Program-made: the position numbers and the translations under genes
IMG/VR virus record: IMGVR_UViG_3300026549_002476
Direction: 5' to 3' (one strand)
DNA length: 56,408 nucleotides
Origin: a virus
Taxonomy: Duplodnaviria > Heunggongvirae > Uroviricota > Caudoviricetes
Shown here: positions 14,784 through 55,282 of the stretch, piece by piece
Numbering within the stretch: the first letter of the stretch is position 1
How the letters are laid out: each line of letters begins with the position of its first letter
The notes under the pieces: model-generated
Database searches by the model: none
What the model saw: only the letters and a program-made list of their open reading frames with translations
What the model was told of the DNA's origin: nothing

Positions 14784-15296
14784 ATGAGTACATATTTTAT
14801 AATGGCTAGACTTTATAAAGATAATAAACTTAGTAGATATAGATTATTCAATATGAATAGAAATAGAATAAAAGATGTTGACTTAGATTATGTAAAAATT
14901 AACATAGATAACATTGTAAATGCTAGAATCTATAATGATGATATACATATAAATGGCGAAAATACTTATAGATTTCCAAATATAAACAATGGAATTATTG
15001 AGGCAAGCAATAGAAATAAATTATTCGTGTTCAGAGTATATAGAAATAAACATAAGAATTACTTAATTGACTGTGTAACATTGGGAGGGGCAGTTTTAAG
15101 TTTAGCATCATATGACATTGATTACTTAAATAAACATAATTTTGTAAATGTTGATATAATTGATGGAGAAGTCATAAGCCGTGAAGATAATTCTTTTGTA
15201 TTAAGAAGAACTTTTGATAAGACTTGGCTTGAAAGATTGAAGCTTAGACTAAATAAGAATGGACATAAGGAAGATAAGAGTAAAAATAAAGTATAA
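14784..15296 (+). CDS. Hypothetical protein, probably two divergent copies of the recurrent ~65-aa domain
   Basis: YFIMARLYKDNKLSRYRLFN...NIVNARIYND and KLFVFRVYRNK...NFVNVDIIDG. Confidence 0.65.
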   Translation: MSTYFIMARLYKDNKLSRYRLFNMNRNRIKDVDLDYVKINIDNIVNARIYNDDIHINGENTYRFPNINNGIIEASNRNKLFVFRVYRNKHKNYLIDCVTLGGAVLSLASYDIDYLNKHNFVNVDIIDGEVISREDNSFVLRRTFDKTWLERLKLRLNKNGHKEDKSKNKV

Positions 15297-15355
15297 GCAT
15301 ACAAATTAGCCATTTAATTAAATTTTGATATATTTAAAAAATAGGAGGTTGTCCT

Positions 15356-15700
15356 ATGGGGAATATATTCGGCAGAGATAATAATGGCAGACCATTTACA
15401 GGGAATGTGTATAATGGAAATGTGACATATTGCAGCGATGGAAATACGATGTACAATCATGGAAATGTGACATATTGTAGTGATGGCAACACTATGTGCA
15501 ATTATGGAAATACCTCTTATATGAATAATGGCGTAACTATCTATAAATCTGGAAACATGTATTTTTGTAATGGAAAAACATATCATAAAGTTGGAAACAC
15601 TTTATTTGGATCAGATGGAAGTGAAATACATGGGTATAGTATGTCAGATCAAGATGTAAGAAATATGATCTTTAGTATGAACAATAGAAAGGAGCGTTAA
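15356..15700 (+). CDS. Gly/Asn/Tyr-rich short-repeat protein
   Basis: AGGAGG RBS. GNVTYCSDGNTM occurs twice with a 15-aa period, followed by degenerate GN/G.T.Y repeats. Confidence 0.75.
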   Translation: MGNIFGRDNNGRPFTGNVYNGNVTYCSDGNTMYNHGNVTYCSDGNTMCNYGNTSYMNNGVTIYKSGNMYFCNGKTYHKVGNTLFGSDGSEIHGYSMSDQDVRNMIFSMNNRKER

Positions 15701-15701
15701 G

Positions 15702-15944
15702 ATGTCATATTTTATAAAATTCGACATGGTAAATAAAACAAAAGCCAAAAGATTGTTTAACGAGGGCAAAGATGTTTGGATCCTTCCAAGTAATATGAGA
15801 ATTGACAATATCTGGATTCAGCCAGCATTGCTAAATAAGAAAAACGGCGTTGATTTCGATACACTAGTCAATGGATACATGTACTATAACTGTAATAATG
15901 AAACTGGAAAAAACGTACATTATTTTGTAGAGTCACAAAAGTAA
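15702..15944 (+). CDS. Small phage-type conserved hypothetical protein
   Basis: AAGGAG RBS. FDTLVNGYMYYNCNNETG..V.YFV resembles a motif I recall from small phage proteins. Confidence 0.65.
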   Translation: MSYFIKFDMVNKTKAKRLFNEGKDVWILPSNMRIDNIWIQPALLNKKNGVDFDTLVNGYMYYNCNNETGKNVHYFVESQK

Positions 15945-15977
15945 GTACATTAAATATTAGATAAGCAGGTAATTAAA

Positions 15978-17288
15978 ATGCAAGCACATGCGAATAAAGC
16001 AATCAAAAATAACAATAAAATCATTGGTTATGAAATTACAGATGGTAAGAGTACAATGAGCATTAATACTCAAGCTATCTTAAATGTTATGAAAGCTGGA
16101 AAGATTACTTTTGATAACTTGCATATTGATGCTAGTGGAACTAACCTTGTAATGGATATACCAGAAGATCAGAAGAAGTTAACTGACGAACTTAATAAAG
16201 CCAGAGAGGTTTATGAGCAAGGTACAGACGAGATAATGCCAAACAGAGAGTATGATGCTAAATATGATCAGCTCAAAGAAATGGAAAAGAAGTCTGGTAT
16301 CATTGCAAAAGATAGTCCTACAGTTAATGTTGGTTATTCAACTTCTGGATCTAAGCTTCAGAAATACACATTTAAAACACCAATGTTAAGCCTTGAAAAA
16401 ACAAAATCAGTTGATGATCTTAAAACTTTCATTGGAAATCAGAATTGTGTTTTATCAACTAAAATGGATGGTTTAACTGTCGTTCTTCAATATATGAATG
16501 GACAGTTGTACAGAGCAATCACTCGTGGAAATGGTGAAGTTGGAGAAATCGTTACAGAAAATGCCAAGAGATTTGTGAATGTGCCACAGAAGATCAATTA
16601 CACTGGCAAGATGGTTCTTCGCGGTGAAGCTGTTATTAAGTACAGTGACTTTGAAAAGTTAAATGTAGACGGAGCTTATAAGAATCCTCGTAACTTATGT
16701 AGTGGTTCTGTAAGACAGTTGGATCCGAATGTTACAGCAAGTAGAAAAGTAAATTGGTTTTGTTTTGATCTGGTAGAAGCTGATGGGATGCCAAGTAGCA
16801 TAACTTATCATCAACAGTTGGATTTCTTAAAGAGCCTAGGGTTTAGTGTTGTTCCGCATACCTTTGTAAATGCATCAACAGTAGATCAGCAAGTGATAAA
16901 TTTTACTACACTCGTTAAAGCAGACGATATTCCTGCTGACGGATTGGTTATAAAGTATGACAATATAGCATATGGACTTGGACTTGGTAGGACAGCTAAA
17001 GCTCCTAAATATGCAATTGCATTTAAGTGGGAAGATGGACTTAAGGAATCTGAGTTAATAGATATAGTTTGGCAGGTTGGACGTACTGGAAAAATTACAC
17101 CAGTAGCAGTATTCAAGCCAGTAGAAATTGAAGGAAGTATCGTTCAGAGAGCAAGCTTACATAATTTAAGTATGTTGAATGAAATACTTGGACAGCCATA
17201 TGTTGGTGAGAAAGTTTATATATACAAAGCCAACATGATAATTCCTCAGATAGCACAAGCTGATAGAAAGGCAGACTTAAGATTTTAA
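15978..17288 (+). CDS. ligA: NAD-dependent DNA ligase, N-terminal half (extra N-terminal domain + Ia + adenylation + OB fold)
   Basis: EYD..YD.L (Ia), KMDG (adenylation Lys), AITRGNG.VGE.VT, RGE, NPRN..GSVRQLD, DGLVIK, AIAFK, WQVGRTGKITPVA, ASLHN, KANMIIPQI. Stops before the Zn finger. Confidence 0.92.
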   Translation: MQAHANKAIKNNNKIIGYEITDGKSTMSINTQAILNVMKAGKITFDNLHIDASGTNLVMDIPEDQKKLTDELNKAREVYEQGTDEIMPNREYDAKYDQLKEMEKKSGIIAKDSPTVNVGYSTSGSKLQKYTFKTPMLSLEKTKSVDDLKTFIGNQNCVLSTKMDGLTVVLQYMNGQLYRAITRGNGEVGEIVTENAKRFVNVPQKINYTGKMVLRGEAVIKYSDFEKLNVDGAYKNPRNLCSGSVRQLDPNVTASRKVNWFCFDLVEADGMPSSITYHQQLDFLKSLGFSVVPHTFVNASTVDQQVINFTTLVKADDIPADGLVIKYDNIAYGLGLGRTAKAPKYAIAFKWEDGLKESELIDIVWQVGRTGKITPVAVFKPVEIEGSIVQRASLHNLSMLNEILGQPYVGEKVYIYKANMIIPQIAQADRKADLRF

Positions 17289-17384
17289 AATAGCATTTTG
17301 ATTTGTAATCCTATAGATTGATTATAACTTATAAGATGATTATAATTTCATAAGAAAATAATTCAATCTAGGGAGAAAACCAAA

Positions 17385-18227
17385 ATGCATAAACATTTTA
17401 CTAAAACATCTTTAACTATATTGCCGTTAGTTGCAGCTATAACATTTTCACCTATTACTGCAAGTGCACATTCAAAAGTAATGCCAGATGGCGGTAGATT
17501 TGATGCAACATTTTATGCTGCAACTTATCCAGATGTAAAGGCAGCATTTGGAACTAATGAAAATTTACTTTATCAGCATTATTTAAACAACGGAAAAAAG
17601 GAAGGCAGACTTCCATATGATCCAAAAGAAACATCTAGTGGCTCGGTGTCAGATGATGGATTTGATCCAGTTTATTATGCACAAGCAAACCCAGATGTGG
17701 TTAAAGTATTTGGAAACAGTCCTGAAGCCCTATATAATCATTATTTAAAATATGGAAAAGCTGAGGGAAGACTTCCACATGCAAATTCCAGTTCTGTAAG
17801 TAATACAACCACAACTACAACTACTACTACTGATGTATCAAGCAAGATATTAGCTTTAAAGAGTCAGTATCCAGAAGGAATGCCATGGAGTGATCAAAGT
17901 TACACGGTTACTCTTATTAAGTCTTTGAATTTAACCGGTCTACAGTGTGCTGGGTTTGCATTTAGGATAAGCAACTTAGTTTATGGAGAAGATGCACCAG
18001 CAACTTGGTATCAAAGTTCATTAAGTTTTGATAATATACAGCCTGGTGATGCAATTAATATAGGAAACTCAGCTGGTGGTAGACATTGGGTAATGGTTAT
18101 AAGTAAAGATGCAAACGGAGTAACAGTTTGTGAAGGCAATTATAATGCATCGGTTCATTGGGGAAGATACATAACTAAGAGTTATATAAACTCAGGGTTG
18201 TACGAGATTATAAGACGAAATGGATAA
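17385..18227 (+). CDS. Secreted CHAP/NlpC-like cysteine hydrolase with two N-terminal 'FD..YYA..PDV' repeats
   Basis: Signal peptide ending ASA. Repeats FDATFYAATYPDV..HY..GKKEGR and FDPVYYAQANPDV..HY..GKAEGR. Thr-rich linker. Catalytic-type QCAGFA, RHWVMV, CEGNY. Confidence 0.7.
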   Translation: MHKHFTKTSLTILPLVAAITFSPITASAHSKVMPDGGRFDATFYAATYPDVKAAFGTNENLLYQHYLNNGKKEGRLPYDPKETSSGSVSDDGFDPVYYAQANPDVVKVFGNSPEALYNHYLKYGKAEGRLPHANSSSVSNTTTTTTTTTDVSSKILALKSQYPEGMPWSDQSYTVTLIKSLNLTGLQCAGFAFRISNLVYGEDAPATWYQSSLSFDNIQPGDAINIGNSAGGRHWVMVISKDANGVTVCEGNYNASVHWGRYITKSYINSGLYEIIRRNG

Positions 18228-19014
18228 CTTTAGCGTTGAATGCGTAAAGATTCTATATGACGAATACAACGGCAATTATGTTTATAAGCTGAGAAATGAA
18301 GAATCAAAAACAGCTCGTATGTCAGCTGACTATTTAAAAAGAGGCATTAAAAGAAACCTAATAGAAGTAACTAATCTGACTTTTGATAAGGATGATAACC
18401 TTATATTTAAATTTTTTGCTGATAAAAGGAATAGTTTTGAACGATCCATTACTAATTCCAAAACAGTAATTACAAGGGATTTGGTACGAAGTATGGATTG
18501 TGAAAAGGCATTAAGATTTGAGGTATACAAAGATAATTATATTTACACATGCATAAACAAAGCTAAATTCCTTGGCATAGATGCAATAGAGATTGAGGAT
18601 GACAAGAGATATAAAATATATGCATTAGATAAACCGAATGAAATACTGGTCATATCGAATAAAGAGCTTATAGTGCCAAATAAAGCAGATTATTTATTTT
18701 CAGAATCTCGCTTTGCAAGTATAGATTTAAGAAATACAGACATGACTGAGATAATGTCTACATATTGTATGTTTCAAAACAGTAAAGCTAAAAATATAAA
18801 CTTAAGCACTTTTGATGGGCATAATTTACTAGATGCTCAGAGAATGTTTTTAAATTCAGAAGCAGAGTTTATAGATTTAAGCAGTTTTAATATAAATAGA
18901 ATATCTAAAATACTGATATTAGACGGGCCATGTGAAGAAGGGATATACTATAATTGTGATGCTAAAGTCAAGTTAAAAGATAGAGTAGCACAGTTTAATG
19001 ATTTAAGAAATTAA
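18220..19014 (+). CDS. Recurrent N-terminal domain fused to BspA/DUF285-like leucine-rich repeats
   Basis: N-region ends IKRNLIEVTNLTFDKDDNLI. C-region ADYLFSES...IDLRN.D...MF.NS.AK.INLSTFD...MF.NSEAEFIDLSSF. Confidence 0.65.
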   Translation: MDNFSVECVKILYDEYNGNYVYKLRNEESKTARMSADYLKRGIKRNLIEVTNLTFDKDDNLIFKFFADKRNSFERSITNSKTVITRDLVRSMDCEKALRFEVYKDNYIYTCINKAKFLGIDAIEIEDDKRYKIYALDKPNEILVISNKELIVPNKADYLFSESRFASIDLRNTDMTEIMSTYCMFQNSKAKNINLSTFDGHNLLDAQRMFLNSEAEFIDLSSFNINRISKILILDGPCEEGIYYNCDAKVKLKDRVAQFNDLRN

Positions 19015-19021
19015 TTATTAC

Positions 19022-19059
19022 AAGAGCTAACATTAAAATTAGTGTTAGCTCTTATTTTT
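19022..19059 (+). terminator. Intrinsic terminator
   Basis: AAGAGCTAACA / TGTTAGCTCTT followed by ATTTTT. Confidence 0.75.
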
Positions 19060-19370
19060 GCTATATAGCATTAGAGTAATAATCAATAAATTTTATAAAA
19101 ATTTTAGAGTATAAAAACTCCGTATATGTGTTGAACAGTGTATATTAAAGGGTGAATAAAAATATAAGCTAAAGTGATTTAAAATCTAGTATACAATAAT
19201 AAAATTTAATTATGCTCTATATATTTCTCAGCTTAATTTTGATTTGTATATATTTAGTTAATTTATCATTGATGCTAAAAGATGCTGTACTTATAGTGAA
19301 AATTGAAATTACTTAGGGTAAAAATTAGGTATACATATTAATTTGAGATATACATAAGGAAAGAGCTATA

Positions 19371-19649: not shown

Positions 19650-19663
19650 ACAGAGGTAATTAT

Positions 19664-19969: not shown

Positions 19970-19986
19970 CAAGGGGTATAAGCTTT

Positions 19987-20716: not shown

Positions 20717-21562
20717 ATGGAAGTTAAGATGCTAGCAATTCCAAGAACTTGTCCAGCTTGTGGACAGCCAACTACAGTATATCAAGATCCAAACAGTGGT
20801 GTTTTAACTTTATACTGTGGGAATCCAAATTGTCCAGCAAAGGGAAATAGAATTCTTGAGCATTTTGTAGCAAGAGATGCCATGAATATTGAAGGTATAA
20901 GCTCTTCTACATTAAATACATTTGTAGAAATGGGGTTCATAACTGATTTTGTATCTATCTTTCATCTTGATAGATATGCAGAGGAAATCACATATTTACC
21001 TGGATTTGGAGTAAAGTCCTATAATAATATCTTAGCAGCTGTAGATAAAGCCCGTAATGTAAAAATATCAAATTTAATATATGCATTAGGTATTCCGAAT
21101 ATTGGTTTAGCAACTGCTAAGTTAATTTGTAAATCATTTAATTATGATGTTGTAAGAATTTTAAATGCTGAATACGATGAACTTGCAGAAATACCTGGAA
21201 TTGGTGGAGTTGTAGCCAGTAATTTTGTTGAATACTTTGCTGATCCAGTTAATCAAAGAGAAGTTACAGATTTACTCAAAGAGGTAAATATTCAACCAGA
21301 GAAACAAGATGTCGATGCATCTATGAGTAGTTTGACTTTCTGTGTTACTGGAGATGTTTATATATTTCCTAATAGGCGAGCTGTCAAAGATTATATTGAA
21401 TCACATGGTGGCAAGCTGACAGGATCAGTTAGCAGAAGTACAAGTTATCTCATTACAAATGACACAACATCTGGGAGCAATAAAAATAAAGCTGCTCAGA
21501 AATATGGCATTCCAATTTTGTCAGAGCAGGATTTCATAAAGAAGTTTAACATAAAGTTCTAA
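20717..21562 (+). CDS. ligA: NAD-dependent DNA ligase, C-terminal half (C4 Zn finger + HhH + BRCT)
   Basis: Own RBS (TAGGAG 20701-20706). CPACG...YCGNPNCPAK, AMNIEGI, LPGFGVKS, ALGIPNIG, IPGIGGVVA, and BRCT TFCVTG...GGK..GSVS..TSYLI...SNKNKAAQKYGIPILSEQDF. Confidence 0.92.
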   Translation: MEVKMLAIPRTCPACGQPTTVYQDPNSGVLTLYCGNPNCPAKGNRILEHFVARDAMNIEGISSSTLNTFVEMGFITDFVSIFHLDRYAEEITYLPGFGVKSYNNILAAVDKARNVKISNLIYALGIPNIGLATAKLICKSFNYDVVRILNAEYDELAEIPGIGGVVASNFVEYFADPVNQREVTDLLKEVNIQPEKQDVDASMSSLTFCVTGDVYIFPNRRAVKDYIESHGGKLTGSVSRSTSYLITNDTTSGSNKNKAAQKYGIPILSEQDFIKKFNIKF

Positions 21563-24053: not shown

Positions 24054-26858
24054 TTGATGAACAATAATGATGTTAAAAATACTGGTGATATGCCAGAAAA
24101 GCCAGTAGAATATACTGATGATTCTGAATTATCTAAAGATATTGATATTGGCATGATTATGGACGAACAAAAAAGAGTTCATAACAGAAATGATGAAAGA
24201 GATGTGCATAACAGTTATGAAACATCTGGCGAAGATACAGATGAAGCTACAGATGAAACACGCGTAATAGACAAAAGAACTGATAAATCACAATCTGATG
24301 ATTTAGGTGATTATAATTATAGCACTGGGGAATATAGGCAGAGTAGAAGATCAGCTAGGATGGAAAGCAAAAGGCGTAAAAGAAAGAAGAATAAGTCTTT
24401 TATGAATAAGGTGCTTTATCATAAAGATGAGACAGCACTTCCACTTTTCATTTTTGAATTCATACTTGCATTTATTGCAGATACACTTAAGATTCTCCTT
24501 AGGTTTGCTTTGTGGATAATTGTTGTACTTGTAGTAATTTGTGTATGTGCAGGTTTGTTTGTATGGCATAAGATTGAACCAACCTATATAAAGTATAATG
24601 ACTTTGCCAATGAGATTGTAGATAACAGTACAAAAGCAGATTTCAAGCCCGAGGAAAGCTCTTATGTTTATGCATCAGACGGAAGCGTGATTGCTAAACT
24701 TCAGGGTGATGAAGATAGCATTTATATCACATATGATAACATTCCAGAATATGTAGATGATGCTTTTATTGCCATTGAGGATCAGTCTTACTGGGATAAT
24801 CCTGGAATTGACTTAAAGGGCATTATTAGAGTTGTTAGAGACTATGTTACAAGTAATGGTGACGATGTAGCTGGTGCATCTACAATTACACAGCAGCTTG
24901 CAAGAGGTGTTTATCTCACTAATGAAGTTTCAATGGAACGTAAGTTCAAGGAGATGCTTATTGCAATTAAGCTAACTAAGAAGTACACGAAAAAGCAGAT
25001 TATGGAATTTTATGTCAACAACTGCTATTTCGCGAACGGTTATTATGGAATTGAGGCTGCTGCACATGGGTACTTCAGTAAATCAGTAAGCGACCTTACA
25101 TTGAGTGAAATTGCTTATTTGTGTGCAATTCCAAACAGTCCTACATATTATGATCCTATTAAATATCCTGAACATGCTATTGAGAGAAGGAATCATATCC
25201 TTGAAAATATGGTTGACTGTGGATACATTGACAAGAGCCAGTGTTTGGAGGCTGAGAGTGAGGAGATTGCACTTAATCCTCAGAAGTACAACTTTAATAA
25301 TTATCAAACGACTTATGCAGTTAATTGTGCAGTTAAATATTTGATGAAGCTTGATGCTTTTACATTCAGATACAGTTTTTCTGATACAGATGACTATAAC
25401 AGTTATAAAGAGAACTATAATAAAGAGTATGAAGCTATGAAAGATCAGCTTTATACAGGTGGGTATAAGATTTATACTTCTCTTAATCCGGACAAGCAGA
25501 AGAGTTTACAGGACATCGTTGATAAATATTTAAGTAAGATTGACAACTCTGTGGATGAAAGTACAGGCGCTTATGAATTACAGAGTGCAGTTACAGCAAT
25601 TGATAATACTACTGGTAAAGTAATTGCAATCGTTGGTGGAAGGACTTCCGAGAATCAGAAGGACGGAGTTTATGAGTTAAACAGAGCTTATCAGTCAAAT
25701 AGACAGCCTGGTAGTACAATTAAACCATTGGTTGTTTATACACCAGCTCTGATGAATGGTTATACACCAAGTTCGATTGTTACAAACATTGATACAGATG
25801 TAGCTAAGCAGAAGGGTGTGAATGCTCAGACACTTGGTGGTGAAAAAATGACTTTGCAGAATGCTCTTACTTGGAGTAAAAATGGAGTAGCTTGGCAGAT
25901 TTTTGATAAACTTAGTCCACAATACTGTTTGTCATTCTTAGCTAATATGGATTTTGCATCAATTTGTCCAGATGACTATACAGATGCAGCAGCACTTGGT
26001 GGTTTGACTTATGGAACTACTACAGAAGAGATGGCTGGTGGTTACAACACATTAGTAAGCGGTGGTAGCTATACAGATACAACTTGTTTATTAAAGTTAA
26101 TTGATTCAGACGGAAATAATGTTTATACTGAACCAGAATCAAAGCAGGTATACACAAGTGCTTCAGCAAAAACTATTAGTGAAATGCTTACACATGTTAT
26201 CAATGAAGGAACAGCTAGGGGTCTTGGTTGGAGTAGCAAATCAAAGATGATTGCAGCTGGTAAGACTGGTACAACTAACAATAATAAAGATGGATGGTTC
26301 TGTGGATATACACCTTATTACACGGTCAGTGTTTGGGTTGGATATGATACACCGAGAAGGTTTAGTACACTACAGGGTGCAAGTTATCCTGGAGAAATTT
26401 GGAGAGATTGCATGTTGAAGCTGATTGATGGGCTTCCAGTAATTAAGAGTTTTGATGAAGTAGCTACATCAACTGAGATTATTCAGAGTGATGACACAGA
26501 GTCAGATACTAACAAATCAAAGTCAGATAGTACAGACTCAATTGATCCTGGCATTAGTGAAGATGGTAAACTTCCAGACTCAGCTTATGAGAAGTACATG
26601 CCTGGTCGTGATGATGCTGAAGTATTAAGCCCGAATTATACAGTTTATGATTATCGTAAAGATCATACAATTGCAGATAGCATTGATACTGTGATTGAGC
26701 AGATGAATGATCTTGATAAGAACGATAGTGATTATAAGTCAAAACTTGATGGTTTGTACAAGAATGGTCAGGATTTGATTAACAGCATGTATGGTGTTAC
26801 ATTAAAATCACAGAAGACAGCAGATTTGAATAATGCTTATGGAGGTTTAAGTAAATAA
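24054..26858 (+). CDS. pbp1A: Class A penicillin-binding protein (transglycosylase + transpeptidase)
   Basis: Acidic cytoplasmic N-terminus and TM helix. GT51 motifs IEDQSYW.NPG, GASTITQQLAR, RKFKE, EFYVN..YF. Transpeptidase motifs SxxK (GSTIKP), SxN (WSKN), KTG (AGKTGT). Confidence 0.92.
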   Translation: MMNNNDVKNTGDMPEKPVEYTDDSELSKDIDIGMIMDEQKRVHNRNDERDVHNSYETSGEDTDEATDETRVIDKRTDKSQSDDLGDYNYSTGEYRQSRRSARMESKRRKRKKNKSFMNKVLYHKDETALPLFIFEFILAFIADTLKILLRFALWIIVVLVVICVCAGLFVWHKIEPTYIKYNDFANEIVDNSTKADFKPEESSYVYASDGSVIAKLQGDEDSIYITYDNIPEYVDDAFIAIEDQSYWDNPGIDLKGIIRVVRDYVTSNGDDVAGASTITQQLARGVYLTNEVSMERKFKEMLIAIKLTKKYTKKQIMEFYVNNCYFANGYYGIEAAAHGYFSKSVSDLTLSEIAYLCAIPNSPTYYDPIKYPEHAIERRNHILENMVDCGYIDKSQCLEAESEEIALNPQKYNFNNYQTTYAVNCAVKYLMKLDAFTFRYSFSDTDDYNSYKENYNKEYEAMKDQLYTGGYKIYTSLNPDKQKSLQDIVDKYLSKIDNSVDESTGAYELQSAVTAIDNTTGKVIAIVGGRTSENQKDGVYELNRAYQSNRQPGSTIKPLVVYTPALMNGYTPSSIVTNIDTDVAKQKGVNAQTLGGEKMTLQNALTWSKNGVAWQIFDKLSPQYCLSFLANMDFASICPDDYTDAAALGGLTYGTTTEEMAGGYNTLVSGGSYTDTTCLLKLIDSDGNNVYTEPESKQVYTSASAKTISEMLTHVINEGTARGLGWSSKSKMIAAGKTGTTNNNKDGWFCGYTPYYTVSVWVGYDTPRRFSTLQGASYPGEIWRDCMLKLIDGLPVIKSFDEVATSTEIIQSDDTESDTNKSKSDSTDSIDPGISEDGKLPDSAYEKYMPGRDDAEVLSPNYTVYDYRKDHTIADSIDTVIEQMNDLDKNDSDYKSKLDGLYKNGQDLINSMYGVTLKSQKTADLNNAYGGLSK

Positions 26859-31502: not shown

Positions 31503-33254
31503 ATGAGTATAAATAGAATAGATGTAGACTCTTTACCAGAGGAATACAAAGAAATTTATAAAAATACTATAATGCCTGTTGATACGAACATTAAGCTTGA
31601 GCAGGTTATATTAAGCGACGAGAATAAAAAGAAAATTAGCCGATTTAAGCATGAAATAGAAATGAGGGATACTCTTAGAAAATATGGTCTTGAACCAATG
31701 AACAGAGTATTGCTTTATGGTGCTTCTGGTACTGGTAAAACTTTCATGACAAAAGCACTTAGTAATGAACTTGGGTTTACAATGTTATACATTGATATTT
31801 CCAGAGCTCTTACTGAAGGAAATGTAGCTAGAAACATATCTGACATATTTAGGTTAGCTAATTATCTTGAGAATTGTATTATATTCCTTGATGAGTGTGA
31901 TTCTGTTGCATGGAGAAGAAATGATGTAAACAATAATGACTCAGCGAATATAAGAAGGGCTACAAACTCAATTTTCCAAAATTTGGATCAGATGAGCTAT
32001 AAGAACTTATTCTTTGCAGCAACAAACTTGGTAGATAGTTTGGATGATGCATTTAGACGAAGATTTAACTTGGAAATGAGATTCTACAGGCCACAGTTAA
32101 ATCTTGATGAGTCTATAAAGCATTTTTTAAATCCGATGTTTCAATTATTGGATGATGAGTCAAAGAAAGAAAAGGAAGTCATTCAAAGGCGTGCTTATAA
32201 CTCAGAAAGTTTAAGCTATTATGCCATTGAAAATGCCGTTAAAGAGGGTGAAAAGAAGTCTGTATTATCTGGTAGTAACATTGTAAGCACATCTGGTATA
32301 TATCAAGATTTGATGACAACGATGCATTTCACACTTAATACCGGAAATGCTATTACTAGAGATGATGTTCCTAAGAAATATCAAGATATTTGGGATAATG
32401 TTATAATGCATGTTGACACTAATATATCGCTTGATAGCGTTATACTTAGTGATGAAAACAAAAAGAAGATTTTAAGATTTCTTAAAGAAGTTGAATATAG
32501 AGATAAGTTAATTGAATATGGACTAGAGCCACAGAATAGAATCCTTATGTATGGAGCCTCTGGTACAGGTAAAACTTTTCTATCAAAGGCTTTATCAAAT
32601 ACACTTGGATATACAATGTTGTACGTTGATATTTCAAAGAGTTTATCAGAAGGAAATGTATCACAAAACATTTCTGATATATTTACTCTTGGCAATTATA
32701 TTGAAACGGCTATTATATTTCTTGATGAGTGTGATTCAGTTGCTTGGAATCGTGATGCAGGCAATGCAGACAATGGTGTAATTCGTAGAGCAACAAATAC
32801 AATCTTCCAAAACTTGGATCAGATGAATCAAAAATGCATATTTATTGCAGCTACGAACATGCTGCATAGATTGGATGCAGCTTTTGAAAGACGATTCAAT
32901 GTAAAAATGAAGTTTACAAGACCAGAGCTTGACATAGATGAAGCTATTCATCATTTTATGTATCCAAAGTTTAGAATTATTGACAATACTCCTGATGACA
33001 TAAAGGAGATTGTTAAAAAGCGTGCTAAACAAAATGCTAAACTTAGCTATTATGAGATTGAAGAAATAGTTAAGGAAGGTATGAAGCGTGCAGTATTGAA
33101 TGATACTGATGTTGTTTATACACTAGACATATATAATGATTTGCAAACTTCAATGCACTTTAAGATTAAACATCAGACTGGCGATGATGATCCAGAAATA
33201 TTTAGGAATAATTCTAGTTATGATCCAGCACCAGATGAAGAAATATACATTTAA
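31503..33254 (+). CDS. Tandem-duplicated AAA+ ATPase
   Basis: Two copies each of Walker A GASGTGKT, Walker B IIFLDECD and SRH AATN...LD.AF.RRF. Confidence 0.9.
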   Translation: MSINRIDVDSLPEEYKEIYKNTIMPVDTNIKLEQVILSDENKKKISRFKHEIEMRDTLRKYGLEPMNRVLLYGASGTGKTFMTKALSNELGFTMLYIDISRALTEGNVARNISDIFRLANYLENCIIFLDECDSVAWRRNDVNNNDSANIRRATNSIFQNLDQMSYKNLFFAATNLVDSLDDAFRRRFNLEMRFYRPQLNLDESIKHFLNPMFQLLDDESKKEKEVIQRRAYNSESLSYYAIENAVKEGEKKSVLSGSNIVSTSGIYQDLMTTMHFTLNTGNAITRDDVPKKYQDIWDNVIMHVDTNISLDSVILSDENKKKILRFLKEVEYRDKLIEYGLEPQNRILMYGASGTGKTFLSKALSNTLGYTMLYVDISKSLSEGNVSQNISDIFTLGNYIETAIIFLDECDSVAWNRDAGNADNGVIRRATNTIFQNLDQMNQKCIFIAATNMLHRLDAAFERRFNVKMKFTRPELDIDEAIHHFMYPKFRIIDNTPDDIKEIVKKRAKQNAKLSYYEIEEIVKEGMKRAVLNDTDVVYTLDIYNDLQTSMHFKIKHQTGDDDPEIFRNNSSYDPAPDEEIYI

Positions 33255-37172: not shown

Positions 37173-37441
37173 TGATTATGATTAAAAAGTATATTATTTT
37201 TTATAGACATGAAGACGTTGAAGATTTTGTAAAAGCAATTAGTAAGTATGATGTAACTGCAGACATAGCTCTTGGTTCTTCTGTGATAGTTGATGCCAAG
37301 TCAATAATGGGTGTTACATCTTTACAGCTGGGAAAGAGATTGAAACTCATTCTACATACTGAAGATACTAAATTTGCAGATGAAATCTTCGAAAGTATTA
37401 ATAAATACATTTGGAAGGAAGATGAACCATGGCAAAGCTAA
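37172..37441 (+). CDS. HPr-like protein
   Basis: VDAKSIMGVTSL (Ser46-region signature) and DVEDFVK. The GLHARP His15 motif is absent. Confidence 0.75.
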   Translation: MIMIKKYIIFYRHEDVEDFVKAISKYDVTADIALGSSVIVDAKSIMGVTSLQLGKRLKLILHTEDTKFADEIFESINKYIWKEDEPWQS

Positions 37442-37951: not shown

Positions 37952-38209
37952 ATGTTTGTTATTCTTGGAGCCTATGTAAAAGGTAACATAGTTAAGGCAT
38001 ATGAAATTCAAAATCTTGAAACTGGAGCATCTACTACTGCGATTCCAGCTACGGTACATCAACTTGCTATAAAACATAAGATTCTTAATGTTATGGCTAG
38101 AAAGATTAATGGTAAGATTTATATGATGGGCACAAATGGTTTTGATCTCAAAAAGATGCCAACTAAACAAGTTTCAAGTGACTTTATGAAAAATAGATCA
38201 ATTAGATAA
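37952..38209 (+). CDS. Stand-alone copy of the recurrent ~65-aa domain
   Basis: AAGGAG RBS. FVILGAYVKGNIVKAYEIQN...ILNVMARKINGKIYMMGTNG.DLKKMP. Confidence 0.75.
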   Translation: MFVILGAYVKGNIVKAYEIQNLETGASTTAIPATVHQLAIKHKILNVMARKINGKIYMMGTNGFDLKKMPTKQVSSDFMKNRSIR

Positions 38210-38227: not shown

Positions 38228-38992
38228 ATGAATCATATAATATATACTGCAATAACACTTGGAATTACAGTATTAGCCTATAAATTAGTTGGCAAGCTAT
38301 ATCAAAGAGTTCCAAAATCATCAGTTACTCGAACATTTATTTATGACGTTGTGAGAGTAACTGTTATAATTTTAGGAATACTTGGAGTTATTATTCAAAT
38401 ACCTTCAGCGGCTAATACATGGGATAGATTACTTGCAGGAAGTGGTGTAATAGCAGTAATAATAGGTTTAGCTGCACAAACATCCTTTGGGAATATTTTC
38501 AGTGGCATAATGATTTTGGTGTCTAAGCCATTTGAAATTGGGGATAGAATACAGATTGGTGAGGATGTTGGGTATGTAACTGGTTTAACCCTACAGTATA
38601 CAGTGATCACAACTTATTTAAATGAGGAAGTGACCATACCAAATTCAGTTGTAAGCTCAACGAGAATAAAGAATTATAGCAAGGTTAATGGAGCTTCTTA
38701 TCCGATTGAGATAACAGTCGGATATGATACTAACCTTGAAAAAGCTAAACAGATAATGATAGATGTTATTACTAAACATCCAAAATATAGTGATAAATTT
38801 GGAACTCCAACTGTACTGGTTAAAGAGGCTGGAGATTACGGAATTAAACTTAAGGTAGTTGTTACAACTGAAAAGCCAGAAGATAATGCAGTAGCTTGTT
38901 CTGATTGTCTAGAGGGGATAATAGTAGAGTTTCAAAAGGAAAGCATTGACATACCATATCCAATAGTAAACATTCAAAAGGATACAAATTAA
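38228..38992 (+). CDS. mscS: Small-conductance mechanosensitive channel
   Basis: Three TM helices, IIGLAAQTSFGNIFSGIMIL..KPFEIGDRI, G.V..L.L.YT.I, IPNS, ITVGYDTNLE. Confidence 0.9.
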   Translation: MNHIIYTAITLGITVLAYKLVGKLYQRVPKSSVTRTFIYDVVRVTVIILGILGVIIQIPSAANTWDRLLAGSGVIAVIIGLAAQTSFGNIFSGIMILVSKPFEIGDRIQIGEDVGYVTGLTLQYTVITTYLNEEVTIPNSVVSSTRIKNYSKVNGASYPIEITVGYDTNLEKAKQIMIDVITKHPKYSDKFGTPTVLVKEAGDYGIKLKVVVTTEKPEDNAVACSDCLEGIIVEFQKESIDIPYPIVNIQKDTN

Positions 38993-39140: not shown

Positions 39141-39794
39141 ATGGATAATCGAGCAAAAGATTTAAATGCAGACATAATTAAAGATATTGAAGATAGTAAT
39201 TCAAAAAATGTTGTAGCAGTTGAACCCACTAAAAAAGAAGAGGCTAAAACAAGAAAATCTGGCAGACCACTTGAAAAGTTTGCTATGACTGCTCGTTGTA
39301 TGAATGGTACTGAAGTTGTTGGGTATTACATTGTAAGCAGCACGAGTCCAAAATCAATTTATATAAGTAAAGAAGTTGCAGCTTTCCTTGTTGGTCAGAA
39401 TCGTGTAAAAAATGTTCAAGGTGCCCTTACAGATAAAGGAATAACACTTACTGGGGTTAATGGGTTTAAAGTTTCTGAACTTCCAACTGCTCAGATGAAG
39501 ATTGAAAATGGTAAGGTAGTAGGTATTGAATCAACTAAAAATGGTAAGGTTGGACTTAATGATAGAAGCATGCTACCAAGAGTAACAAAGATAATTAAGA
39601 AAGATAAAGCAATTATTGGAGTAGAAACTGTTGATGATAAATATGGAACTAGAAGGCTAAATTTGATAGAGTTTGAGACACTTGGTTTAAAAAGGCAGTT
39701 TAGCAATGTATATATTCAGAAATATAATGGAAGGTTTGTACCTCATGGCATTAATTGTAACTGGGGTGATATTCCTGTTGAGCAAGTTCAATAA
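39141..39794 (+). CDS. Protein with two copies of the recurrent domain
   Basis: TARCMNGTEVVGYYIVS...VAAFLVGQNRVKNV...GVNG..VSELP and VTKIIKKDKAIIGVE...QFSNVYIQKYNG...GDIP. Confidence 0.75.
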   Translation: MDNRAKDLNADIIKDIEDSNSKNVVAVEPTKKEEAKTRKSGRPLEKFAMTARCMNGTEVVGYYIVSSTSPKSIYISKEVAAFLVGQNRVKNVQGALTDKGITLTGVNGFKVSELPTAQMKIENGKVVGIESTKNGKVGLNDRSMLPRVTKIIKKDKAIIGVETVDDKYGTRRLNLIEFETLGLKRQFSNVYIQKYNGRFVPHGINCNWGDIPVEQVQ

Positions 39795-40119: not shown

Positions 40120-40647
40120 ATGGGTAACATTATAATGTATAAGCTAGCCTATGTAGTTAAAAATGGAACAATGGTTACTGGGTATGGTCTTGTAGATTCT
40201 GAGACTAGAAGGCCAAAAACTTATAATAGAGAGCAGGTTGCATTTTTAGCTGGTCGTAAGCAAATAATTGGTTTAGCCAGCCAGATTAGTAATGGAGCAG
40301 TAATTTATAAGGGAACAAAAATTCCACTTAAAAATCTTCCAGTTAAACAGCAAGCAGCACCTAATAGAGCTGTAGTAACTGATAGTCAAGATAAAGCCTA
40401 TGTGGTTACACCTGGAGCAAGGGGTCGTAAATCTTTATCCACTAATGGTAGATATATGATTGTTGGCACAGTACAAAGTAAAGATAATAAGCACATTACT
40501 GAAGGATACAAGGTAGCTGACAGAAAATCTGGTAAAACAGATATTCTTAGTAAGGAACAGGTTGTAAAGTTGATTAGTCAAAATCAGGTTGTAAATGCTA
40601 GAGTTCAAGTTTGGAATGGGCGTACAATCATCAGACTTAAGAAGTGA
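40120..40647 (+). CDS. Protein with two copies of the recurrent domain
   Basis: KLAYVVKNGTMVTGYGLVD...EQVAFLAGRKQIIG...LKNLP and MIVGTV....ITEGYKVAD...KEQVVKLISQNQVVNARVQVWNGRTIIR. Confidence 0.75.
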   Translation: MGNIIMYKLAYVVKNGTMVTGYGLVDSETRRPKTYNREQVAFLAGRKQIIGLASQISNGAVIYKGTKIPLKNLPVKQQAAPNRAVVTDSQDKAYVVTPGARGRKSLSTNGRYMIVGTVQSKDNKHITEGYKVADRKSGKTDILSKEQVVKLISQNQVVNARVQVWNGRTIIRLKK

Positions 40648-44821: not shown

Positions 44822-47800
44822 ATGGTGAAGGTTATGAATACAGTAAACTGCCTAGTAGTTGGTGTATATAGAAACAAAACAGACATAGTTGGTTTTAAAC
44901 TAATACGTTATTCAGATCATCAACAATTTGATATATCCTATGCAAATACTTGCTTGCATATCAAAAATGGTAGTTTGCATGTACAAAATCTTGAACTTGT
45001 AAATGGACAGTTAAAGTTTATAGGTGGTGCTGAATCAAGATATGATGATCCAAAGGGCATTGTCAATAAGCTCGTAATACTTGATGAAGTATACGATAGA
45101 AAAACTGGGACATTGGTGTATTATGATGTAGCGTCTGCTATAGGTAAGGTTACTAGAAATAGTGTTAATACAATACTCAATTATGCTATTGCAAATAATA
45201 AAAAAGGTATTAATGTACTTGCTAATGCTAAATTGATAAACAAAAATGGTAAGTATATAATTTCTAGCATTGAGGGAACTTATCCAATATTAAGTGTGGA
45301 TATTCCTAGAACACCTGTAAGCAAACCAGCTACAAAACCTGAAGCTACGAAACCTGAAGCTACGAAACCTGAAGCTACGAAACCTGAAGCTACGAAACAA
45401 ACAGATGCCAATAGTGTATCTCAAGAAGTTGTAAATAAGATACGCAAGTGCATGTCTTATCCTGATTTTCATGATAGCTTTGCTGAAAAAGTCAGTTTAA
45501 CCATAAAGAAGTTTAAAAAGTGTTCTCCGAAACAAGAAGCAGTACTCGATAGATTTATAAATGAGCACAAGGATGAAGAAGTAACTGTAAGAAGGGTTGA
45601 GCCAGTTGAAGATGAAATTAAGGAAGTACCAAAGGTAGATCAGAAGAAACCTGAAGTAGATCAGAAGAAACCTGAAGTAGATCAGAAGAAACCTGAAGTA
45701 GCCGAAGTTGAAGTTTCTAAGCCAACCCCAGTAAAATCTAAAGTAGATACTTATGATGCTAACAGGATAATAAGAGTTTACAGCAATTATCAGACAGTAT
45801 CAAATAATGACTTAACATACAAAGTTACTGGAAATACCAATGAAGTTTATGTAGCAAGACTTTTAAATCATGATCTTAAAAACATAATAATTCCAGATGA
45901 TGTTGCAATAGATGGAAAAACTTATGATGTAGTTGGTATTACAAGTGGAGCTTTTGCTAATGAAGACATAAAAAGTATTAAATGTGGGCCTAAGATGAGA
46001 GATATTGGGCCTGGGGCATTTGAGGCTTCACATATAGAATTTGCAGATTTATCAGATACTAAAATTACTTTAATAGCTAGCAGAACTTTTCTTAACTGCA
46101 GGTTTTTGAAATATGTAAAGTTAAATAATTTGATTGAACGTATACATGAATATGCTTTTGCAGAGTCCAGTTTGGAGTCAATAACTCTACCTGATACAAC
46201 TATGACAATTTCTGCTAAAGCATTTGAGAATTGTAAAAACCTTCAAAGTGTTAATGCAAAACCAAAGTTTGTAAATGATGGAGCATTCTGTGGGGATAGA
46301 AAGCTTTCAGTATTTGACTTTAGTAATATTAATTCCATAGCTCCATTTGCATTTTGCGGCTGTGCTTTCGAAGAAATTGAAATATCTGAATCTACTGTGA
46401 CAATAGGTTCAAAGGCATTCTTAAACAATCTTGAACTTAGTAAAGTTAATATAAAAGATGGTGTTTCTGCCATTGGGGACAATGCATTTTTCAGAATTGA
46501 CTTCGGTAGGAGAGGAGTCACAGATATTAAGTTAGCAGTTGGAAAGCCACCTAAAGATAAAAAATTAGAAATAACTGTTCCAAAGTCTGTAAAAGAAATT
46601 GGACATAATGCTTTTGGAGCAGCAAGTTTAGTTTACACTTATACTGGTTCCTATTGTGAATCATATTGCAACGGTTATAGTGTACCATGTATGCTGTTGG
46701 ATAGTGCAAATACAGAAAATACAACAGCAATAAGAAGAAAATCTGCTTTTCTTGGTACAAGTCCAATGCAGAGCATTTATAATAGATTATCTGCTAATGC
46801 TCCAGATGCAGCTAACCCAGAGTATTCTTTAAGATATGACAAGTTAACTGATATAGATGCAGGTGCACAATTATTAAAGGCACTTAAAGTACCGATCGGA
46901 TCAAATCCGATAGATCCATCAATAAAGTTTAAAGCTATTGTAAACTATTTACAGGATGTAAGTGGCTATTATAAAGATCCATTAACAAATGAAGTATTAA
47001 GGCTTAGCAGGGCGTTTAATATTCATAATGAAGTTTTATACACAGACTCATGGAATTCTGTTAATAAAGTGTCTTATGAAATGATGGATACTTTGGATAA
47101 GGGTAGTTTCATAATGGTTACAAGTGGAACTAAACTGCTATATGTATCTCCATTGGCTCCTGAAACAGATATATTGGTTAATCCACAGAGTTTTAATGAT
47201 GAAGCTTTACCAATAAATGGAATTATTCATTCTGGAGATAAGCTTGGTAGAGATGGTGTTATAGCTAGCTATAAAGCCTATCTTGGACCTGATGAACATC
47301 ATGGATACATAGATGTTGGTATATTATATGCTAATAAGCTATTCCATCAAGGTATTGGCATAAGGAAAACCAGAAAAGACTATTATTTGTATGTGCCATG
47401 TGAAAATATTGTATTGTACATACATGACGATGGTAAGAATATAGAAGAAAACTTTCATGACAGGGATGAAAGAGATATAGGAACATTAACTATTGTACAG
47501 ATGATCTCATATGTGGAATTTATAAATGAGGTTAAAGATAAGATCATTAGAAGTGGCGGGGATGACAGAAGATTCTTTGATACAGTAAAGAGTTTTTCAA
47601 GTACTGAAATTAATAATAGAATAACAAGTACTGGTTTAATCCAAGAAGAAAAACAAGCTCAGCTATTTAGAATTTCTAAGGCATTTAATGAAATAGTTAT
47701 TAAAGCTGGAGATGTAAGAATTACACCGAATTATTTGACACAAGACTTGTTTGATGGATTGTGCAACAGTTATTGGATGGTTCCAAAGGATAGTCAGTGG

Positions 47801-48880
47801 TTGAGATTAGCTAAGAGTAAATCTCTCAATAAGATTGATGAATATAACATTGGAAATTATAGGATAATTGAGTATAGGAGTAATCAAGTAGTTAAATTTA
47901 GTAATCCATACATGAATGGCTGTAAGGGTGCTTATATATTTGTTAAATACATCAATAATAGAGAAGCTGGTGTGTATGCAAGCGTAATGAGTTTATCTGA
48001 GATAGCAACTGAATTGGTTAATTTAACAAGGTTTGATCAGAGTATACCAGTAGTTGATCTTATGCAGAATGCTGAAGAACTTGATATGGTTGATCCTAAA
48101 CTTTTCTACTCATTCTATAATGTATTGTATACATCAGATGGGTGGCTACTTGAAGATTATTCACCAGCATTTAGAAGCATAGGCAACTCAGTTAGTTTTC
48201 ACATTTCAATGTATAAGCCAACTGGAGTATTCTATTTGACAGCAAATCTATTTGCAACAAGAACTGTTATTGGAAGGAAAGGAACTGAAACAAAAACAGT
48301 TGACTTAAGGACTATTCCAATACTTCCTATTGGTAATATGAACAGAGCATTAATGGTTGCAAATACAACTAACATAAATGCAAGCAAATTGAAATTGTTT
48401 AATGAACTTATTGAATTAGCTTTAATAATGGATTATAAGATAAATAATCTTAATATTAGTGAAGAAAGACTTAAGTATTGTATAAATAGCGTGCATGATA
48501 TTATAAGTCGCAGATATAAGAATATGAAATTTGATGTTCCTGATGAATCAGCTTATGTAAGGTACATTAAAGCCCGTGAAATGTCCATTGAAGGCATAAA
48601 AGATGCAAAAGAATATAAGAAAATAATAGATGACAGAGCTGTTTATATGATGGGTACAGTAAGTAAAGGTCAACTAAAGGTCGAGAATTATAAATCTTAC
48701 GATTTTGATAGTGATACTTATGATGAAGACCAGAGTTTTGAAGAAGTAATAGATAATGATGATGATGAGTATGACGAGTCAGAAGATGAAAACGAGTATG
48801 GCCAGTCAGAATATGAAATTGACTTTGATGAAGATGGAGAGTTTGAAAAAGATACAGAAGATGACGAAGACTATGAATGA
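44822..48880 (+). CDS. Large multidomain protein: 2x recurrent domain, repeat linkers, BspA-type LRR, long orphan C-region, acidic tail
   Basis: VVGVYRNKTDIVGFKLI...VQNLELVNGQL. KPEAT x4 and VDQKKPE x3. IPDDV.IDGKTYDVVGI..GAF followed by 'I...AF..C..L' LRR repeats. D/E-rich final ~50 aa. Confidence 0.8.
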   Translation: MVKVMNTVNCLVVGVYRNKTDIVGFKLIRYSDHQQFDISYANTCLHIKNGSLHVQNLELVNGQLKFIGGAESRYDDPKGIVNKLVILDEVYDRKTGTLVYYDVASAIGKVTRNSVNTILNYAIANNKKGINVLANAKLINKNGKYIISSIEGTYPILSVDIPRTPVSKPATKPEATKPEATKPEATKPEATKQTDANSVSQEVVNKIRKCMSYPDFHDSFAEKVSLTIKKFKKCSPKQEAVLDRFINEHKDEEVTVRRVEPVEDEIKEVPKVDQKKPEVDQKKPEVDQKKPEVAEVEVSKPTPVKSKVDTYDANRIIRVYSNYQTVSNNDLTYKVTGNTNEVYVARLLNHDLKNIIIPDDVAIDGKTYDVVGITSGAFANEDIKSIKCGPKMRDIGPGAFEASHIEFADLSDTKITLIASRTFLNCRFLKYVKLNNLIERIHEYAFAESSLESITLPDTTMTISAKAFENCKNLQSVNAKPKFVNDGAFCGDRKLSVFDFSNINSIAPFAFCGCAFEEIEISESTVTIGSKAFLNNLELSKVNIKDGVSAIGDNAFFRIDFGRRGVTDIKLAVGKPPKDKKLEITVPKSVKEIGHNAFGAASLVYTYTGSYCESYCNGYSVPCMLLDSANTENTTAIRRKSAFLGTSPMQSIYNRLSANAPDAANPEYSLRYDKLTDIDAGAQLLKALKVPIGSNPIDPSIKFKAIVNYLQDVSGYYKDPLTNEVLRLSRAFNIHNEVLYTDSWNSVNKVSYEMMDTLDKGSFIMVTSGTKLLYVSPLAPETDILVNPQSFNDEALPINGIIHSGDKLGRDGVIASYKAYLGPDEHHGYIDVGILYANKLFHQGIGIRKTRKDYYLYVPCENIVLYIHDDGKNIEENFHDRDERDIGTLTIVQMISYVEFINEVKDKIIRSGGDDRRFFDTVKSFSSTEINNRITSTGLIQEEKQAQLFRISKAFNEIVIKAGDVRITPNYLTQDLFDGLCNSYWMVPKDSQWLRLAKSKSLNKIDEYNIGNYRIIEYRSNQVVKFSNPYMNGCKGAYIFVKYINNREAGVYASVMSLSEIATELVNLTRFDQSIPVVDLMQNAEELDMVDPKLFYSFYNVLYTSDGWLLEDYSPAFRSIGNSVSFHISMYKPTGVFYLTANLFATRTVIGRKGTETKTVDLRTIPILPIGNMNRALMVANTTNINASKLKLFNELIELALIMDYKINNLNISEERLKYCINSVHDIISRRYKNMKFDVPDESAYVRYIKAREMSIEGIKDAKEYKKIIDDRAVYMMGTVSKGQLKVENYKSYDFDSDTYDEDQSFEEVIDNDDDEYDESEDENEYGQSEYEIDFDEDGEFEKDTEDDEDYE
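45335..45394 (+). repeat. In-frame 15-bp tandem repeat (4 copies)
   Basis: Unit AAACCTGAAGCTACG, encoding KPEAT. Confidence 0.95.
45635..45697 (+). repeat. In-frame 21-bp tandem repeat (3 copies)
   Basis: Unit GTAGATCAGAAGAAACCTGAA, encoding VDQKKPE. Confidence 0.95.
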
Positions 48881-50089: not shown

Positions 50090-50098
50090 GTAGATAAG

Positions 50099-50566: not shown

Positions 50567-50622
50567 CACGATAAATAAATGATTAAAATTACCAACTGGT
50601 AGTTGAAAACGGAGTACTAATT

Positions 50623-52527: not shown

Positions 52528-52592
52528 CATATAAACTAATTCATTAAATTGGGTATGATTAAAAAATTAACATGTGTACGGAGGTTTATTAA

Positions 52593-53456: not shown

Positions 53457-53485
53457 TTAAAATTATTGTAACAGGAGAAGATGAA

Positions 53486-54421: not shown

Positions 54422-54432
54422 ATTAAATAAAT

Positions 54433-54475
54433 TATAAAAGCACCAATACATTTAAAAGTTATTTGGTGCTTTTAT
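54433..54475 (+). terminator. Intrinsic terminator
   Basis: ATAAAAGCACCA / TGGTGCTTTTAT. Confidence 0.7.
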
Positions 54476-54553
54476 TATGCTATAAATGACCTTATTGTAA
54501 AGTATAGTATATTTAAATAATAATTATTAAGATTTTAGTTTTGGAGGTATAAC

Positions 54554-54751
54554 ATGTATTGTAATGATATGGACTGGTGTTTGCTATACTGTGAAAGTAA
54601 TGGCGATTGGAAGATCGGTAAGGATACAGATAAAGACTTTATGAATCGTCCACAGCACTCAGATGGTACAGAATATACAGATGAAGAAATTAATAAGCCT
54701 AGTGATAATAAGATTGACATAAAGAAAAACGAGCCTATTAACATTCTATGA
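54554..54751 (+). CDS. Small hypothetical protein
   Basis: GGAGG RBS, 65 aa. Confidence 0.6.
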   Translation: MYCNDMDWCLLYCESNGDWKIGKDTDKDFMNRPQHSDGTEYTDEEINKPSDNKIDIKKNEPINIL

Positions 54752-54763
54752 TGGAGTATAATT

Positions 54764-55282
54764 ATGTATATAGTTAATAAAGCTTATGATGACAAATCAG
54801 CTGATATTCTTGATATAACTAATGGAAATTCAATGCATCTTGATGAATCAGGGCTTGTGGGTTTAGCTAAGAATCATTCAGTGTATGGATTAGCATGCTA
54901 CAAAAACAAAGTTTCAAGTTTGCAGGCATATGATTTTATGACTTTTGCTACTGAAGTCGAGGCTGACGAATGGATTAGAGAAGCTGGATTAAATAATATA
55001 AATAAATTAGCAATGAGTTATGGGACTATAGTATTAATTAAAAGCAATGTAAAATATCATGTTTCATATTATGTTGGATACTACAGAGGTGATCCACATA
55101 TGGGTGATTATGAAACACTTGTAGCTGAGGGTCGTGGATATACAAATTACAGAGAAGCAGCCAAGGAGTTTACGAAGACTGATGCAGAAAAGAAAGCTGC
55201 AATAATGAGAAATAGAAGTAAATCCGCTGTACCTTGGAAAGCTATTCGTGGCAATGTTACAGAGATAAGATACAATAAATAA
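54764..55282 (+). CDS. Hypothetical protein with a possible divergent recurrent N-terminal domain
   Basis: GGAG RBS. MYIVNKAYDDKSADILDITNG.S.HL....LV.LAKNHSVYGL. Confidence 0.65.
   Translation: MYIVNKAYDDKSADILDITNGNSMHLDESGLVGLAKNHSVYGLACYKNKVSSLQAYDFMTFATEVEADEWIREAGLNNINKLAMSYGTIVLIKSNVKYHVSYYVGYYRGDPHMGDYETLVAEGRGYTNYREAAKEFTKTDAEKKAAIMRNRSKSAVPWKAIRGNVTEIRYNK

Follow-up and report, generated by a model that had tools for sequence, protein, structure and literature searches.

A domain of about 65 residues recurs through the genes of the window analysed here, a stretch of 56,408 nucleotides from a Caudoviricetes virus (IMG/VR record IMGVR_UViG_3300026549_002476). A reading of these letters alone (the original prediction) had proposed twelve copies of it in eight genes and a role as a portable interaction tag. 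Here we show that the repeated domain is real, with nine copies in six genes supported and possibly ten in seven; the motif on which the original prediction relied stands, and its count was too high. The domain is a divergent DUF3892-like branch lying beyond the reach of the Pfam model, and not a new fold. It comes in two flavours, strongly basic stand-alone or tandem proteins and a near-neutral form found at the N terminus of other proteins, where it behaves as a portable module whose fusions are old and conserved.

Copies of the domain in the window

We name genes by their start positions; all long open reading frames (ORFs) lie on the plus strand, as do the features described below. The nine supported copies comprise one in 37952, two each in 39141 and 40120, one each at the N termini of 18220 and of LigA-N, the first half of a split DNA ligase, and two in 44822. 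The five in the stand-alone and tandem genes form a core (37952-38179, 39273-39500, 39561-39791, 40129-40359 and 40444-40644) whose members are mutually detected by pairwise phmmer, the first domain of 39141 matching 40120 at E 7e-8 in the set of 410 six-frame ORFs. E-values obtained on this ORF set come from small databases and are hence lenient. A 76-position profile of the core (A1), run against 1.84 billion representative proteins, retrieved 412 metagenomic clusters at E<=1e-3, 192 of them at E<=1e-10, with a best E of about 1e-59, and 39141 is represented in this search by P0005 (E 6.5e-59). When a second profile, built from 301 retrieved domains, was scored on the same 410 ORFs, the core copies reached 53-76 bits, the LigA-N N terminus E 3.7e-5, 14784 E 0.006 and 44822 E 0.3, while the top ORF outside the candidate genes of the original prediction scored 7.5 bits. 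Significant matches to the tandem family profile are thus available for 37952, both domains of 39141 and of 40120, and the LigA-N tag; family membership of 18220 comes through a profile of the ligase tags, and that of both 44822 domains through a profile of their own. A word-indexed homologue search returned near-identical relatives only, for 40120 and the N terminus of 44822, and a scan of IMG/VR with 40120 alone as query found nothing.

The simplest form is 37952, an 85-residue single-domain protein (37952..38209, domain at residues 1-75) with an isoelectric point (pI) of 9.9 and a score of 63 bits against the 301-domain profile; its orthologue is present in the syntenic relative L001. The two tandem-pair proteins have 217 residues (39141..39794) and 175 residues (40120..40647). 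In the former the domains score 67 bits (first) and 53 bits (second) and follow an N-terminal stretch of 44 residues rich in lysine and glutamate; in the latter they carry net charges of about +10 and +12 and are joined by a disordered linker. The single and paired copies of all three genes had been correctly recognised in the original prediction.

The fourth carrier is the ligase. LigA-N (15978-17288) consists of a DUF3892-like tag at residues 1-61 (15978..16160) followed by domain Ia, the adenylation domain and the OB domain, and lies 3.4 kb from LigA-C (20717..21562), which holds the HhH and BRCT domains (PF12826 and PF00533 matches). LigA-N has the domain content of LigA (PF01653 at E 7e-53, PF03120 at E 2e-22, and E 1e-89 to the LigA model), and as this protein is only half of the enzyme, its score stays below the equivalog cut-off. 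In the NCBIfam LigA model NF005932, LigA-N residues 65-428 align to model positions 3-384; some 61-64 N-terminal residues are therefore extra, in agreement with the extension of about 60 residues originally proposed. Seventeen related ligases with 47-57% identity retain this extension, whereas cellular LigAs of 655 residues lack it, begin at domain Ia and cover 84% of the query. As the 17 include both split (432-478 residues) and unsplit (697-761 residues) enzymes, the tag does not serve to reassemble split halves. An alignment of the 17 N termini (A3) matches the alignment of the tandem family (A2) with an hhalign probability of 94.2% (E 1.2e-7), a jackhmmer search seeded with the ligase N terminus converges on the tandem family, and iteration from the ligase-tag profile also reaches it.

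Two proteins with leucine-rich repeats (LRRs) carry the domain N-terminally, again as first suggested. The ligase-tag profile, built without any other window sequence, finds the 18220 N terminus in the ORF set (E 4.4e-7, 24 bits) and scores it at 28.0 bits as an isolated piece. Here the tag occupies residues ~6-65 (18235..18414) of a 264-residue DUF285-like LRR protein (gene 18220-19014), which is orthologous over its full length (E 1.5e-38) to a 388-residue protein in a 268-kb IMG/VR phage that likewise joins the tag to DUF285. The DUF285 (PF03382) match of the 18220 cargo, 23.4 bits, falls just below the cut-off of 25, and that of its phage orthologue reaches 157 bits. The other protein, encoded by 44822-48880, is a BspA-type LRR protein of 1352 residues whose cargo matches LRR_5 (PF13306) at 116.5 bits, above the Pfam threshold. 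Its first tag domain (residues ~8-70, 44843..45031) matches the ligase-tag profile (E 2.3e-3 among the ORFs, 19.4 bits as a piece) and, in hhalign, the tandem profile (E 2.6e-4). The second (residues ~79-155, 45056..45286) has no significant score alone. The first ~200 residues of 44822 are, in turn, homologous to the N termini of two 798-residue proteins in a 250-kb phage, and a three-sequence profile of these N termini (A6) is collinear with both tandem-family domains over 143 columns (hhalign against A2, 96.1%, E 3.1e-9); 44822 therefore holds two copies, as had been claimed. An ESM Atlas feature search with the 44822 N terminus and with 14784 gave nothing usable. After the second tag a linker of PEATK repeats follows; the low-complexity PEATK and KKPEVDQ repeats at 45300-45700 resemble flexible spacers placed ahead of the LRRs.

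Three of the twelve proposed copies fared less well. In the 170-residue ORF 14784-15296, which had been put forward as a probable tandem pair, the first candidate (residues 3-61, 14790..14966; hidden Markov model E 0.006) is marginal: as a piece it gives an hhalign probability of 31% and E 5e-4, exceeding all 40 shuffles, and in the whole protein only 5%. The second (15009..15233) scores at the shuffle mean, with 21 of 40 shuffles equally good, and is unsupported. The weak copy claimed in 54764 (54764..54973) lies in an acidic region of pI 4.5 and, at 3.4 bits and hhalign probabilities of 2% and 0.3%, is no different from shuffles. No homologue of either 14784 or 54764 was found in the two IMG/VR phage genomes.

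Fold, charge and distribution of the family

Scans of all claimed carriers against Pfam, NCBIfam and PHROGs returned no family for the domain, so that the description of it as unnamed is correct for these collections, but its fold is DUF3892-like. An AlphaFold2 model of 40120, computed with 78 relatives, has a mean predicted local distance difference test score (pLDDT) of 84.9 overall and above 90 inside both domains, each of which is a beta3-alpha-beta2 unit (E-E-E-H-E-E), with residues 82-107 forming the disordered linker. The ligase tag, modelled from an alignment that held no tandem-family rows, reaches a pLDDT of 90.3 and has the topology of the tandem domain, bearing out the expectation of a common fold. 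Furthermore, both models match the same entries in the AlphaFold database and ESM Atlas, DUF3892-named models and clusters included, and both have the DUF3892 fold. The tandem model aligns with a DUF3892-named AlphaFold model over 85 residues (template modelling score, TM, 0.67 by hit; root-mean-square deviation, rmsd, 3.0; Foldseek probability 1.0) and with an Atlas cluster that is 99% PF13031 over 74 residues (TM 0.72, rmsd 2.4), and the ligase tag matches DUF3892 models at TM 0.68 by query and 0.56 by hit.

At the level of sequence, the best PF13031 score in the window is 15 bits (E 0.036, second domain of 40120), and the gathering threshold of 22.3 bits is not reached. Among the 78 relatives PF13031 is the sole recurrent family, with eight matches at E<=0.01 (best 2.8e-4), all sub-threshold. 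It is on these eight matches, together with the structural ones, that the DUF3892-like assignment is based. The copies do not map to a well-characterised Pfam family of unrelated role, since the closest family, DUF3892, is itself uncharacterised. Among solved structures, a PDB sequence-profile search gave nothing at E<=10 and a Foldseek search of the PDB nothing below E 0.1. A search of BFVD returned uncharacterised phage proteins only (best E 1.4e-3). A published comparison likens the three-stranded meander and helix of DUF3892 to those of the double-stranded RNA-binding domain (dsRBD) and HPF, notes that DUF3892 is fused to varied partners and proposes a role for it as an RNA or ribosome sensor (bioRxiv 10.1101/2025.01.14.632903).

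The two flavours are separated by charge. The 301 tandem-type domains have a median pI of 9.56, with 81% above 9, and a mean net charge of +4.8, whereas the 17 ligase tags are near-neutral (pI about 5-9, mostly near 6). Given its distinct basic character, the stand-alone and tandem form could act as a different functional partner. Genes for replication, repair and nucleotide metabolism surround 37952, 39141 and 40120, and the neighbours recorded for the basic flavour encode OGG, guanylate kinase, NrdD/G, a DnaG zinc ribbon, Dam and Pif1. At another locus (L004, 8942-14196) a 576-residue tandem-pair protein is encoded between genes for S-adenosylmethionine synthetase and an S1-domain protein on one side and for Ribosom_S30AE_C and RNA ligase on the other, a neighbourhood that may tie part of the family to RNA or to translation.

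The search with the aligned copies also revealed how the family is built and where it occurs. Among the best 149 of the 412 clusters, 81 consist of nothing but a tandem pair (150-200 residues), 57 have the pair at the N terminus of a longer protein, and five have it C-terminally, one of these (P0029) after a BspA LRR region; all family members that we looked up are unnamed metagenomic proteins. One family cluster, that of the tandem-pair relative P0160 (L002/L003, ENA scaffolds), sits on contigs of up to 660 kb and translates only with TAG read as glutamine; the family therefore spans standard-code and recoded huge phages. Its recoded locus has a single-domain gene together with three tandem-pair genes in a row, a paralogue cluster like that of the window. 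In a pattern scan of one genome from each of 185,579 species the conserved subfamily appeared in one metagenome-assembled genome only, a result limited to the patterns used, and in IMG/VR it is found on two contigs, of 250 and 268 kb. In each of these the profiles match 7-8 times for the tandem type and 5-7 times for the tag type; a few places are matched by both, so that these are not gene counts.

On the 268-kb phage the tag begins at residue 1 of a full-length LigA, the DUF285 protein and three unknowns, and on the 250-kb phage at residue 1 of a DUF2201 metallopeptidase-VWA protein and one unknown. Three tags of the 268-kb phage are 61-77% identical to one another, and the cargo behind them has no detectable homology. 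The tag of its DUF285 protein is, in turn, only 29% identical to that of the window orthologue; ligase tags group by cargo, with 39% identity between the two genomes. The same module of about 60 residues is thus found on unrelated cargo in three huge-phage genomes. This is the portability that the original prediction foresaw; the addressing function it attached to this module is plausible but unproven.

Possible roles of the two flavours

Taken together, the charge, gene context, architecture and sharing of tags lead us to infer that the basic domains bind nucleic acid and that the tags have a docking role. According to the reading that we favour, and which we hold to be about evenly balanced between right and wrong, huge phages have expanded a DUF3892-like domain whose basic copies bind nucleic acid and whose neutral form tethers cargo to a shared partner. 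The basic stand-alone and tandem proteins (37952, 39141 and 40120) would most likely bind phage nucleic acid. The near-neutral fold would serve as a portable N-terminal module, often flexibly linked to its cargo, which in the window is LigA-N and two LRR proteins and elsewhere the DUF2201 peptidase-VWA protein and unknowns. It would most likely tether that cargo to one phage-specific partner or site in common. The stand-alone copies might conceivably act as scaffolds or competitors, as first proposed.

Several observations weigh against this. No binding partner, protein or nucleic acid, was identified. The three window tags are mutually only 15-25% identical, so that a single common partner is not obvious, and the high identity of tags in the 268-kb phage could stem from recent duplication of 5' gene ends and not from selection by a partner. 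Positive charge is by itself no proof of nucleic-acid binding, and given the RNA- and translation-related neighbours elsewhere (S1, S30AE_C, RNA ligase) the ligand could be either DNA or RNA. The closest solved structures, chromo and chromoshadow domains with best Z scores of 4.0 and 3.6 for the two models (VIA-align wide), bear no close resemblance to them. Finally, the 40120 model has a predicted TM score of only 0.46, and its two domains are not packed together, giving no hint of homotypic contacts. A bolder proposal gives huge phages an addressing system of their own: near-neutral tags would dock diverse cargo (DNA ligase, LRR proteins, the peptidase-VWA protein) onto basic tandem paralogues that cover the phage genome or label a compartment which the phage builds, tag and scaffold forming the two sides of a homotypic recognition code; we consider this unlikely. 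A complex prediction pairing 40120 (A2) with the ligase tag (A3) gave no answer (score 0.00) and speaks neither for nor against binding.

Other explanations can be set beside the favoured one. That there is no true domain family, the copies resembling one another through chance or low complexity, might be suspected from the failure of three of the twelve claimed copies; however, whole-library E-values down to 1e-59, the 192 clusters below 1e-10, confident and concordant AlphaFold2 models and profile-profile probabilities of 94-96% refute this for the nine supported copies, and we give it a negligible probability. It is possible but rather unlikely that all copies, tags included, are non-specific binders of double-stranded nucleic acid, used in the manner of a dsRBD or Sso7d. 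The tag would then raise the affinity of the ligase for DNA and concentrate the other cargo on phage DNA or RNA. Engineered Sso7d-type fusions do improve ligases and polymerases. The tandem flavour is very basic, one relative has a weak Cren7 match (E 1.1e-3), and the fold class is common to dsRBD and HPF according to the Lipocone preprint (bioRxiv 10.1101/2025.01.14.632903). Yet most tags of the ligase type are neutral to acidic, with a pI of about 5-7, unsplit tagged ligases have HhH and BRCT DNA-binding domains of their own, and contact with DNA is not obviously needed by the LRR and peptidase-VWA cargo.

The position of the tag, N-terminal on diverse cargo without signal peptides, together with the linkers that follow some tags in the window and in ligase relatives, would also suit a signal for virion packaging or ejection, a special case of addressing by which tagged proteins would travel inside the capsid and enter the host, where LRR and metallopeptidase-like proteins could act on host targets. 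There is, however, no virion gene near any copy in the window, and a replicative-type NAD+ ligase would be unusual as a packaged protein; we regard this explanation as distinctly unlikely. We judge it more improbable still that the phage copies serve in counter-defence, imitating DUF3892 proteins of the host as decoys or competitors. DUF3892 has indeed been associated with operons of defence type, among them some regulated by CapH/CapP (bioRxiv 10.1101/2022.04.27.489752), but its divergence keeps the phage branch under the Pfam threshold, the analysis revealed no counterpart in a host, and the conserved LigA and LRR fusions would be left unexplained.

Genomic context and comparison with known systems

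The window has a GC content of 30-35%. Several of its proteins have orthologues on the 250-kb and 268-kb viral contigs of IMG/VR. A plasmid or an integrative and conjugative element was considered as its identity and dropped, the relatives sitting on IMG/VR viral contigs of 250-268 kb. Searches of GenBank phages and PLSDB plasmids gave no match (megablast of 12 kb; tblastn of 40120). Besides the carriers, the window encodes a TROVE/Ro60-like RNA-binding protein (DUF2828, DUF7788 and VWA; 2541-4049; phrog_850 at E 3e-121), a 2395-residue protein with 14 Cna_B repeats (7494-14681), a class-A penicillin-binding protein with transglycosylase and transpeptidase domains (24054-26858) and a Cdc48/FtsH-like protein with two AAA domains (31503-33254) that is conserved in L001. 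It may be remarked that both a Cna_B-repeat protein and a class-A penicillin-binding protein are encoded by a phage-like element. Further recognisable genes are those for S26 signal peptidase, OGG, Pif1 and the DnaG zinc ribbon. Directly upstream of the ligase region lies a 114-residue ORF (15356-15700) of degenerate G/N/Y/T-rich repeats of ~16 residues each, and between the single-domain and tandem genes a 254-residue membrane protein of the MscS channel type (38228-38992), whose L001 orthologue matches MS_channel_2nd/3rd. In the lineage of the window, a small HPr-like protein with a weak PTS-HPr match (37172-37441) is encoded close to the cluster of DUF3892-like genes, and a distantly related huge phage with recoded TAG has such a protein in a similar place (L002, 18601-18840).

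Huge phages have hundreds of unannotated genes, and this domain family accounts for several per genome. It now has a fold, a link to DUF3892 and a rule that sets basic stand-alone copies against an N-terminal module on unrelated cargo, which turns orphan genes into a testable hypothesis on the way in which replication enzymes and proteins with a putative part in host interaction are organised in huge phages. Conversely, the natural fusion partners, LigA and the LRR proteins, could help to reveal the ligand of the defence-associated DUF3892 fold. The fold family itself is not new; what Pfam, NCBIfam and PHROGs leave unannotated is its huge-phage branch, with the tandem form, the sub-branch of tags and the fusions to LigA, LRR and peptidase proteins, and a literature search found no paper on any of these.

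In architecture the tag recalls systems in which one small, linker-joined module is borne by many unrelated cargo proteins, such as dockerin-cohesin and the capsid-targeting sequences of phage T4. This likeness would be one of architecture only, as neither has a sequence or fold relation to the phage tag. Chromo and chromoshadow domains, which are SH3-like small barrels, share three strands and a helix with the phage domain, align over ~50 residues and are the best solved-structure matches of both models; the Z scores of 3.2-4.0, rmsd of 2.6-3.6 and 0-15% identity nevertheless lie in the range of common arrangements, no evidence of an aromatic cage was seen, and we claim no membership. The dsRBD and HPF share the meander and helix with DUF3892 in the published comparison, and one relative adjoins S1-domain and S30AE_C genes, but no sequence match or significant structural match to them was obtained for the phage domain. 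Compared with cellular LigA, the window ligase retains domain Ia, the adenylation domain and the OB domain in LigA-N and HhH and BRCT in LigA-C, and differs in being split between two genes and in bearing ~61 extra N-terminal residues as the tag. The closest likeness is to DUF3892 (PF13031) itself, an uncharacterised domain of ~70 residues with a predicted meander, helix and beta hairpin and with varied fusion partners. Classical DUF3892 proteins are as a rule small, have one domain and belong to bacterial operons of defence type (bioRxiv 10.1101/2022.04.27.489752), whereas the phage branch is mostly tandem, strongly basic and encoded on huge-phage contigs, with a sub-branch that tags LigA, LRR and peptidase proteins.

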